Virus record (IMG/VR): IMGVR_UViG_2718217885_000006
Origin: a virus
Lineage: Duplodnaviria > Heunggongvirae > Uroviricota > Caudoviricetes
DNA: 45,337 nt
Direction: 5' to 3' (one strand)
Each line of letters starts with the position of its first letter. The stretch's first letter is position 1. Under the pieces are notes generated by a model that saw only the letters and a program-made list of their open reading frames with translations, did no database searches and was not told where the DNA came from. Made by a program: the position numbers and the translations under genes. Shown here one piece after another: positions 2,451 to 3,463 of this stretch.

Positions 2451-3278
2451 TTATTTAACCTGGATAAATGGTGTATTTGCACCGCTGGTCATGTATTGCG
2501 GCAGTGTGCCGTTCCATTTATTGATGGCTTCCAGCTCCATAACACCGGGGTTCTGGCGCAGAGCTTCACCGCGTAAACGAATAGCATCGGCTTCGGCCTG
2601 GGCTTTTGTGCGAATCGCATCAGCCTGTCCGGCAGCTTCCGCGCGCAACATGTTGGCCTCCGCTTCACGTTGCTTGACTTCCTGCTCGCGCTGCAGGGTT
2701 TTCTGGTTTGCCGTGACTTTGGCGTTAATGCTGTCGATAACGGTTGGAGGGTATTCCGGTTTACCTACATAAGAGAGGCTCATTACCTGAATGCCGATGG
2801 GTGTCATCTCTTCCTGAATGTCTTTAAGTGCGGCATCCAGTAGTTCAGACTTGCCGCCGTCGATAAATTTGTCAGTGGTCATTTTGCTGGCCAGCCGATT
2901 GAGTGCGTCGGCAATTTTCTGGCGCAGGTCAGTGTCGGTAATGTCATCCACGCCTTTGCGGTAGGTCTGAAACACCGTGGTAACTTTGGATGGATCAACT
3001 TTGTAGGCCACACCGATGTGATAGCCGATGGTTGTACCGTCACTCATCTGGAAACTGAACGGTTCATCGTAGGTCTTCATTTGTTTGAAGGTGGGGAAGA
3101 TATAAACTTCAGTATTCCAGCCAGTCCAGTAGCGACCAACACCGACCACCTCACCGACGCCTTTGTCGTCGCCTAGTTTATTTACCTTGATGCCAACATT
3201 ACCTGGTTCAACGCGATCGCAACCGACAAGGCCAATAGTCGGCAGAACAATGGCTAAAGCAAAAATAATTTTTTTCAT
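2451..3278 (-). CDS. SPFH/band-7 (stomatin/prohibitin-like) lipoprotein
   Basis: 275 aa; N-terminal lipoprotein signal with lipobox LVGC; SPFH-like core followed by an Ala/Glu/Arg-rich coiled-coil tail (QREQEVKQREAEANMLRAEAAGQADAIRTKAQAEADAIR). Confidence 0.8.
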   Translation of the reverse strand: MKKIIFALAIVLPTIGLVGCDRVEPGNVGIKVNKLGDDKGVGEVVGVGRYWTGWNTEVYIFPTFKQMKTYDEPFSFQMSDGTTIGYHIGVAYKVDPSKVTTVFQTYRKGVDDITDTDLRQKIADALNRLASKMTTDKFIDGGKSELLDAALKDIQEEMTPIGIQVMSLSYVGKPEYPPTVIDSINAKVTANQKTLQREQEVKQREAEANMLRAEAAGQADAIRTKAQAEADAIRLRGEALRQNPGVMELEAINKWNGTLPQYMTSGANTPFIQVK

Positions 3279-3463
3279 CTTTTATCCTTAGTGAAAGAAA
3301 GACCCTTGTAAATGGCATAAATGCAGGGCGGGGTCAGAAACGCCAGTGCAAAGCAAGAAATAACTGCTATCGTATCCTTCATGGATATAAGGAACGGAAC
3401 GAGTAATCCGTAAATGCATGCGATAATTGCCAGTAAAATTACTATTGTGAAATACAGTCTCAT
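3275..3463 (-). CDS. small membrane protein partner of SPFH gene
   Basis: 62 aa, two hydrophobic helices (IVILLAIIACIYGLLVPFLI, AVISCFALAFLTPPCIYAIY); stop overlaps SPFH start in an ATGA arrangement, implying translational coupling. Confidence 0.55.
   Translation of the reverse strand: MRLYFTIVILLAIIACIYGLLVPFLISMKDTIAVISCFALAFLTPPCIYAIYKGLSFTKDKR

Follow-up and report, generated by a model that had tools for sequence, protein, structure and literature searches.

An SPFH lipoprotein and a small two-helix membrane partner form a conserved two-gene unit in virulent and temperate phages

The two genes and their coupling

The stretch of viral DNA analysed here (IMG/VR record IMGVR_UViG_2718217885_000006, Caudoviricetes; 45,337 nucleotides, hereafter the window) contains two overlapping genes on its minus strand, between positions 2451 and 3463. 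The upstream gene (3275..3463; open reading frame (ORF) call and profile match) encodes a predicted two-helix inner-membrane protein of 62 amino acids (aa) that belongs to the PHROG 1130 family. The downstream gene (2451..3278) encodes a 275-aa SPFH/Band-7 lipoprotein which corresponds to phiP27 L05, PHROG 200 and WP_000720009.1, as established from the ORF call, Pfam, PHROG, RefSeq and an AlphaFold2 (AF2) model. Both genes are already present in RefSeq, and no study found in our literature search addresses their function. The new observations are that the SPFH lipoprotein and its mini partner make up a conserved two-gene unit over virulent and temperate phages, that this unit combines a non-NfeD partner with a lipid anchor, and that the mature scaffold has been swapped between phage backbones.

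An earlier reading of this DNA made from its letters (the sequence-only reading) had described a 62-aa two-helix membrane ORF and a 275-aa SPFH lipoprotein overlapping by ATGA, and both ORFs are indeed found at the coordinates above. The overlap (3275..3278, minus strand) joins the TGA stop of the small ORF (3277-3275) to the ATG start of the SPFH gene (3278-3276), an arrangement of translational coupling, and the Shine-Dalgarno sequence of the SPFH gene (AAGGA, at about 3286-3290, 8-12 nt 5' of the ATG) lies within the small ORF. The same 4-nt overlap is shared by 67 of the 75 loci scored. In Shigella flexneri SFBU1023 and Escherichia coli ECMA0423, an IS1-like element (~5230-6000 of these loci) sits exactly between the small ORF and the SPFH gene, where it alters the last residues of the small protein and uncouples both genes.

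The SPFH lipoprotein

The 275-aa protein matches the Pfam family Band_7 (PF01145) with 108.3 bits, against a gathering cut-off of 23.6 (E = 6e-31), and PHROG 200, labelled "lipoprotein", with E = 7e-115. Its SPFH domain spans residues 22-208 (2655..3215, minus strand). The domain search envisaged in the sequence-only reading was thus positive for SPFH, and it returned no NfeD-like partner. The N-terminus, MKKIIFALAIVLPTIGLVG followed by CDRVEPG, is a lipoprotein signal peptide (3219..3278, minus strand) that starts with MKK and ends with LVG before the cysteine. As read from the sequence, it has the canonical lipobox L17-V18-G19-C20 (Cys20 codon at 3219-3221), in line with the lipobox LVGC that had been reported, and Asp21 at position +2. 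The cysteine and the residues before it conform to the pattern [LVI][ASTVI][GAS]C, and the signal peptide is, as required of a lipoprotein, hydrophobic with a positive charge. The lipobox Cys is found in 104 of the 123 SPFH cluster representatives, 99 of which also have Asp at +2, and it is invariant in the SPFH homologues of Gram-negative phages down to 29% identity. Asp21 would act as a Lol-avoidance signal for retention in the inner membrane. Among the SPFH clusters of SSU5-like phage-plasmids, P0110 (175 contigs) reads IIG followed by Y instead of the lipobox Cys.

The AF2 model of the SPFH protein obtained from a single sequence had a pLDDT of 45.5 and was unusable. A 24-sequence alignment was used instead and gave a mean pLDDT of 79.7, with block means of about 80-95 over most of the SPFH domain and lower values by its N-terminus. 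The model is made up of the SPFH alpha/beta domain and a single long coiled-coil helix, which according to the AF2 secondary structure covers residues 178-242 (2553..2747, minus strand) and bears out the coiled-coil C-terminus previously proposed. Such a helix is the wall-forming element of solved SPFH cages. When the model was compared with solved structures using Foldseek, HflK/HflC came first (7vhq, E = 3e-14, full length), followed by prohibitin (8rrh), erlin and a further HflK/C assembly, while stomatin, flotillin, QmcA-YbbJ (8z5g) and the major vault protein ranked below them; the E-values for HflK/C, prohibitin, erlin, stomatin and flotillin ranged from 1e-14 to 1e-8. At the sequence level, the only matches to solved structures were the prohibitin-2/prohibitin coiled-coil region and HflK. 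Residues 178-242 are the part that aligns with the coiled coil of prohibitin-2; in the structural comparison, HflK/C and prohibitin chains could be aligned over the whole model. HflK/C, prohibitin and erlin are SPFH proteins that respectively face the periplasm, the mitochondrial intermembrane space and the lumen of the endoplasmic reticulum; these exoplasmic locations fit a periplasmic lipoprotein. Beyond the long helix, the alignment reveals a C-terminal motif K-W-[ND]-G-x-L-P...P-F (residues 254-271; 2466..2519, minus strand), in a region of low model confidence. In phages down to 29% identity, W255, G257 and P260 are invariant in this motif, and K254, L259 and P270 are nearly so.

The small membrane partner

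The small protein matches PHROG 1130, labelled "membrane protein", with E = 2.7e-21; it has no Pfam family match and is annotated in RefSeq as WP_024212032.1. It contains two hydrophobic stretches (residues ~3-26 and 32-52) separated by the five-residue loop SMKDT, and its termini are basic. From these stretches and the positive charge at both ends, the protein is predicted to form a hairpin with both termini in the cytoplasm. The family motif YGLLVPFLISMKDT (residues 18-31; 3371..3412, minus strand) would then cover the periplasmic end of helix 1 and the 5-residue periplasmic loop. In the first three-phage alignment, residues P23, I26, S27 and V34 were invariant; in the close relatives, P23, L25, I26, S27, M28, K29, D30 and T31 are, and the motif recurs among the 73 distant representatives listed.

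The sequence-only reading had allowed that the small ORF might not be conserved. It is conserved: its 62-codon form is present in 83 of the 97 related loci, and the family has its own PHROG. Comparisons of E. coli copies with that of the window mostly gave dN/dS ratios of about 0.1-0.4 (one close pair reached 0.81), which indicates that the small ORF is under purifying selection. Given the PHROG 1130 match, the RefSeq annotation, the recurrence of the 62-codon form and these dN/dS values, a chance ORF can be dismissed. When 1.84 billion representative proteins were searched with a profile, 74 partner clusters (50% identity; E up to 0.001) were retrieved, all but one of them 36-91 aa long. The gene has been left unannotated in phiP27 (NC_003356.1, 3307-3492), in the records of Shiga toxin 2 (Stx2)-converting phages examined (LC5678xx) and, as a 78-aa version, in the P1-like RCS47.

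Association of the two genes

PHROG 1130 matches were obtained for seven partners besides that of the window. A member of this family is encoded directly 5' of the SPFH gene in phiP27-like phages, in a second type of lambdoid, in the P2-like P88, in the P1-like RCS47 and in the SSU5-like PhiR41_1, and it overlaps the SPFH start in the virulent Erwinia phage S6 and Agrobacterium phage OLIVR5, as well as in Pseudomonas phage U2 (lifestyle unchecked). In virulent Salmonella phages of the SSE121 type, one 54-aa ORF stands between partner and SPFH gene. Such interposed soluble ORFs of 54-62 aa, which by eye look like ribbon-helix-helix proteins, were seen in the SSE121-type phages (SSE121, 1832-1996) and on one metagenomic contig (1430-1618). 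Six distant representatives of the partner were checked; one contig ended too early to show its neighbours, and in four of the five informative ones the partner adjoins a gene for a Band_7/SPFH-like lipoprotein. In Burkholderia phage E174, a two-helix protein beside the SPFH gene could be related to the partner by a purpose-built profile only. The sole partner found without an SPFH gene is P0185, a 91-aa homologue from metagenomic plasmid-like contigs that lies between a DUF6012 gene and genes of a thin pilus (TcpQ, PilM, secretin).

The more distant phage SPFH genes adjoin a different small membrane ORF. This is the case in phiCbK-type phages, in Kayvirus (MbpV/MbpS), in crAss-like phages and in haloarchaeal viruses. 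Salmonella phage PhiSH19 has, just 5' of its Kuttervirus SPFH gene, the end of an unannotated ORF (~1440-1640, minus strand) whose ~69-aa product contains two hydrophobic helices and does not match the PHROG 1130-type profile. The "superinfection exclusion protein" encoded beside the SPFH gene of PhiSH19 was also considered as a relative of the partner and rejected, as it is soluble, acidic and unrelated to the partner family. On a contig binned as an archaeal metagenome-assembled genome (~5800-6300), a divergent partner overlaps by 8 nt the start of an SPFH lipoprotein gene (64% identity over residues 1-81), of which only a short ORF was read; the ORF may be truncated or frameshifted, or the binning may be at fault.

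The two members of the pair do not share the same history. Between the window and P88 or RCS47, the mature SPFH protein is 96-97% identical, the signal peptide 42% and the small partner 23-31%. At the DNA level, homology between the window and P88/RCS47 is limited to 2484-3230, that is, SPFH residues ~17-265. Recombination joints can therefore be placed at the lipobox and ~10 codons short of the stop, which implies that the mature scaffold has been exchanged between phages independently of its partner. Such a high identity over unrelated temperate backbones suggests a conserved constraint, set by the host or by structure, and not an arms race.

Distribution

A match was found in 572 of the 5,426 complete E. 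coli genomes (about one in ten), at 432 chromosomal and 233 plasmid places, and the carriers include Stx-converting phages and P1-like and SSU5-like phage-plasmids. At least five temperate backbones unrelated to one another contain the pair, namely phiP27-like lambdoids and a further type of lambdoid, P88 (where it corresponds to gp11/gp12), RCS47 and the SSU5-like phage-plasmids, among them PhiR41_1. The pair is also found on a 108-kb contig of Yersinia pestis, which may be pMT1. In RCS47 (3864-5400), the pair occupies an accessory slot between tRNA/plp/upl genes and a dnaB-like helicase gene (ban); P1 itself carries tciA, tciB and tciC in this slot.

Among 185,579 species-representative genomes, 11 had close matches, a scan based on strict back-translated patterns which reports close relatives and says little on distant chromosomal homologues. 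Those whose context was examined are prophage-like or lie on ~100-kb contigs resembling phage-plasmids, and a scan of viral contigs returned only near-identical E. coli prophage copies. Every close relative examined is thus located in a phage, a prophage or a phage-plasmid, and the housekeeping-type module that the sequence-only reading had set against its own proposal was not encountered. A protein search of 50,697 phage records retrieved SPFH relatives in 741, most of them virulent phages. The Staphylococcus Kayvirus-type phages dominate (236), followed by phages of Pseudomonas (76), Erwinia (48), Klebsiella (45), Enterococcus (31) and Caulobacter (26) and by Halorubrum viruses (25); relatives are also present in a crAss-like phage and a Lak megaphage. 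A third homology search with a diverse SPFH profile added only ten sequences.

The prophage and the early-left operon

Positions 2300-3700 of the window are 100% identical to a prophage that is integrated beside yecE in E. coli 09-00049, and 96% identical to the Stx phage phiP27. The window coordinates cover this prophage from the integrase gene through the last tail-fibre gene, and stx genes are absent from it. The window is an stx-less phiP27-like prophage at yecE. Read leftwards, the genes are those for a cI-like repressor and a helix-turn-helix (HTH) protein, three small or unknown ORFs, a 176-nt spacer, the small ORF, the SPFH gene, a DUF5406 gene, a DUF4222 gene, a 48-aa ORF, xis and int. 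This order, from the repressor side through the pair to xis and int, agrees with the leftward accessory operon previously proposed. The spacer 5' of the pair (3464..3639, minus strand) is AT-rich (32% GC), and no convincing sigma-70 promoter was found on its coding strand; the pair directly adjoins the gene before it in P88 and S6.

The GC-rich hairpin that had been noticed 3' of the SPFH stop is located at 2425..2443 (minus strand), 7 nt past the stop codon, and consists of an all-GC 7-bp stem and a 5-nt loop (GCCCGGC-AGGCC-GCCGGGC). It lacks a T-run and so does not qualify as a canonical terminator. Directly after it come the ribosome-binding site and the start of the DUF5406 gene, and the stability of the 66-nt hairpin region does not differ significantly from that of shuffled sequence (z = -1.2). 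Of the 15 unrelated contexts examined, 12 have a GC hairpin after the SPFH stop, and in four of these 12 (SSU5-like contexts and Lelliottia) it bears the T-run of a true terminator. A moron, or autonomous insert, would bring its own promoter and terminator; the pair shows the hairpins just described and, in the window, no promoter on the coding strand. An Rfam scan of the window found no match within or adjoining the pair.

Elsewhere in the prophage, a class II holin, a lysozyme and Rz1 are encoded at ~19.9-22.1 kb of the window, ~16.5 kb from the pair, and no NfeD gene is annotated anywhere. An IS66-family element (tnpA, tnpB, tnpC; ~13085-15673) lies beside a frameshifted ORF. At 8672-8860 (plus strand), in the Rha/antirepressor region, adjacent Rfam matches to isrK (62.8 bits) and C4 antisense RNA (80.1 bits) suggest that this lambdoid prophage has an antisense immunity element of the P1/P7 type. 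The small RNA STnc100 (93.7 bits; 18634-18809, plus strand) is found between a TerB-family gene (~18006-18431) and an iraM-like gene (~18854-19189).

Possible roles of the pair

Several scenarios may explain the conservation of this unit. The one we favor, with a confidence somewhat short of even, is that the pair is a phage-encoded, HflK/C-like two-component scaffold that compartmentalises patches of the inner membrane in the infected or induced cell, for the control of membrane proteins or of membrane integrity. The 275-aa protein would be exported and lipidated at Cys20, and Asp at +2 would keep it on the periplasmic face of the inner membrane; the mature protein has no transmembrane helix of its own. 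Its C-terminal coiled coil may drive the assembly of a ring or cage that fences off an inner-membrane patch, as in HflK/C and prohibitin. The co-translated 62-aa hairpin would be the membrane-embedded component, serving either as anchor or fence, or as the client within the cage, and its P-x-L-I-S-x-x-D-T motif would lie at the periplasmic membrane surface, where the SPFH domain is expected to be tethered. The module would be transcribed with the early-left operon, that is, on infection or induction, and would serve the phage's own cycle through inner-membrane protein quality or membrane integrity in the infected cell. The 741 mostly virulent records, the embedding in an early operon without a promoter of its own and the 96-97% identity of the SPFH protein over unrelated backbones argue that the function is not specific to lysogeny; the pair looks like a lifestyle-independent, phage-wide module rather than a prophage-specific defence system.

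Several points weigh against this scaffold. The scenario depends on a localisation, an oligomerisation and a contact between the two proteins that we infer. The lipobox Cys is replaced by Tyr, Trp or Phe in 13-16 of the 123 SPFH cluster representatives, so that a sizeable lineage may not be lipidated, and Arg at +3 may weaken the retention signal provided by Asp at +2. Partners that are 23-31% identical accompany nearly identical SPFH proteins, which suggests that their contact rests on a short motif or that there is none. The partner homologue P0185 is located on an IncI-like plasmid with no SPFH gene nearby. Finally, the Pasteurella multocida SPFH protein PM0222, a possible homologue encoded by a prophage, was detected in outer-membrane vesicles (PMC9872710).

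A specific version of the scaffold scenario, in which the client is named, is that the cage encloses or competes for the host FtsH as HflK/C do. The turnover of phage regulators of the cII/cIII/Xis type and of membrane proteins would then be altered, either biasing the choice between lysis and lysogeny or protecting early membrane proteins. The nearest cellular relatives by fold and sequence, HflK/C and prohibitin, are indeed partners of FtsH-type proteases, and the pair belongs to the early-left operon, where lambda keeps cIII. An FtsH-related role has also been suggested before for phage SPFH genes (PMC8540360, PMC4936722). Nevertheless, the identity to HflK/C in structural alignments is only 17-20%, the HflC and HflK scores are far below the equivalog cut-offs, the N-terminal transmembrane helix of HflK/C is missing, and SPFH relatives are present in strictly virulent phages and haloarchaeal viruses, all of which makes this version, though plausible, unlikely. 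A role in superinfection exclusion (Sie) or abortive infection (Abi), as proposed by the sequence-only reading, is possible but disfavoured; the anatomy described in that reading was right, and its interpretation is partly supported. For exclusion, the pair would block the entry of incoming phage DNA at the inner membrane or periplasm, in lysogens and in early lytic infection, like T4 Imm/Sp, P22 SieA or HK97 gp15. An accessory, patchy membrane module of an early operon, made of a small two-helix protein and a periplasmic lipoprotein, would suit such a role, as known systems are small inner-membrane proteins or lipoproteins (for SieA, see PMC10883804). Yet the pair matches neither Imm_superinfect nor any Sie family, it is more strongly conserved than exclusion determinants are, and no autonomous promoter was found that would express it in a lysogen. 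Moreover, the same mature SPFH protein is shared by lambdoid, P2-like and P1-like phages, which have different virions and would be expected to use different entry routes. Exclusion seems rather unlikely to us.

Abi would cast the small protein as an effector that depolarises the membrane and that the SPFH scaffold restrains or sets off. Abi effectors are often small proteins with two helices, the pair has an accessory position in the prophage, and one metagenomic contig carries an IetA-like AAA protein directly 5' of it. The link to defence genes was however not borne out, as neither protein nor any neighbour had a specific PADLOC match (generic HTH matches aside), and the frequency of the module in virulent phages, the purifying selection on the partner and the high conservation of the SPFH protein do not fit a defence system, so that we give this scenario little credit. 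The mostly virulent carriers, the embedding in an early operon and the sharing of one scaffold by phages with different virions argue against any lysogen-specific Sie or Abi. A function in lysis timing, with a holin- or antiholin-like small protein and an SPFH scaffold organising holin rafts or the export of lytic enzymes, has a counterpart in Kayvirus, whose lysis module includes mbpS and mbpV between lysK and tgl and whose MbpV is said to be holin-like (PMC7150955), and in the crAss-like phage, where the SPFH gene and its membrane ORF adjoin a peptidoglycan hydrolase. The window pair is, however, ~16.5 kb away from the lysis cassette of the prophage (class II holin, lysozyme, Rz1), its neighbours in S6, SSE121 and OLIVR5 are early or nucleotide-metabolism genes, and no holin family matches the partner, which leaves lysis timing very unlikely. 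Last, the SPFH protein could be a lysogenic-conversion lipoprotein, expressed from the prophage and acting on the animal host (as a TLR2 agonist or virulence factor) or on envelope fitness. This is what PM0222 would suggest, since it is expressed in the lysogen, occurs in outer-membrane vesicles, activates TLR1/2 and contributes to virulence (PMC9872710). But PM0222 is only a possible homologue, and such a role accounts neither for the members in virulent phages nor for the conserved membrane partner; it appears extremely unlikely.

Whichever scenario holds, the obligate-looking mini membrane partner turns an SPFH gene into a defined two-gene unit that is amenable to cloning, deletion and purification. 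If the cage model is true, the pair would offer a compact model for client choice by SPFH proteins and a new function in the takeover of the host membrane. If the defence scenario is true instead, a membrane scaffold would join the defence repertoire.

Comparison with known systems

The closest structural likeness is to HflK/HflC and prohibitin. It extends over the full length (SPFH domain and long coiled coil, with a similar length of the C-terminal coiled coil), and these proteins have their SPFH domain on the exoplasmic side, as is predicted for the phage protein. The NCBIfam equivalog models set the phage protein apart, with 25.5 bits for HflC (TIGR01932; cut-off 134.4) and 23.4 bits for HflK (TIGR01933; cut-off 159.4). 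The phage protein has a lipoprotein signal peptide, whereas HflK/C have an N-terminal transmembrane helix, and the phage locus combines a single SPFH gene with a 62-aa neighbour instead of encoding a heteromeric pair. Orthology to HflK or HflC was rejected on these grounds: the scores far under the cut-offs, the lack of the helix and the single SPFH gene.

In SPFH-NfeD operons (QmcA-YbbJ, PH1511-PH1510, YuaG-YuaF), an SPFH gene is likewise co-transcribed with the gene of a small membrane protein. Nevertheless, none of eight partner proteins searched had a Pfam NfeD match, even at E up to 10, and at 62 aa the partner is too short for an NfeD domain. Unlike the NfeD partners, the PHROG 1130 family has no Pfam model. 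The SPFH domain of QmcA is cytoplasmic, and that of the phage protein is predicted to be periplasmic. The pair was thus rejected as an SPFH-NfeD operon, its partner being devoid of the NfeD domain.

The nearest phage analogue in the literature is the MbpV/MbpS pair of Kayvirus (the Staphylococcus phage K group), whose role is also not known (PMC7150955). There too, a small membrane protein gene directly precedes a phage SPFH gene, and MbpS is a distant relative of the window SPFH protein (~25% identity, E ~3e-7). However, MbpS is anchored by an N-terminal transmembrane segment instead of a lipid, MbpV has only one helix and no relationship to PHROG 1130, and mbpV/mbpS belong to the lysis module, unlike the window pair. 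A spanin or holin was likewise rejected, in view of the position outside the lysis cassette, the Asp at +2 of the SPFH lipoprotein and the lack of holin family matches among the eight partners. PM0222, whose gene belongs to a lambda-like prophage and has no described partner, is an HflK/C-like SPFH protein of comparable size; it has been studied only for its effects on macrophages (PMC9872710). Apart from it, our search of the literature on SPFH together with prophage, anti-phage, superinfection or holin found no functional study of a phage SPFH protein. Papers that mention phage SPFH genes consider their role unclear or speculate on an HflK/C-like effect on lysogeny (PMC13239085, PMC8540360, PMC4936722).

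T4 Imm/Sp and other small membrane exclusion proteins are, like the pair, early, accessory and small phage proteins of the inner membrane or periplasm. The likeness is one of setting only, as they have no sequence relationship to the partner or to the SPFH protein, and the eight partners had no Imm_superinfect match at E up to 10. To our knowledge, no such system has an SPFH component. Among the defence systems of PADLOC-DB 2.0, neither the pair nor its flanking genes had a match, the window showing only generic HTH matches of a 144-aa regulator, and the neighbours of both proteins elsewhere gave only generic HTH, AAA and homing-endonuclease matches. A catalogued defence system was therefore rejected, since specific model matches and defence neighbours are both lacking.

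In this context, one may wonder whether the pair represents a third, phage-wide type of SPFH system beside HflK/C-FtsH and SPFH-NfeD. This broader proposal is more doubtful than the scaffold itself. It would consist of a lipid-anchored periplasmic nanocage with its own dedicated mini two-helix partner. Phages of diverse hosts and lifestyles might deploy it during infection, either to enclose some conserved machine of the inner membrane or to preserve membrane integrity under stress or under attack by host defences that target the membrane, and the mature cage subunit would be exchanged between unrelated phages as a unit.

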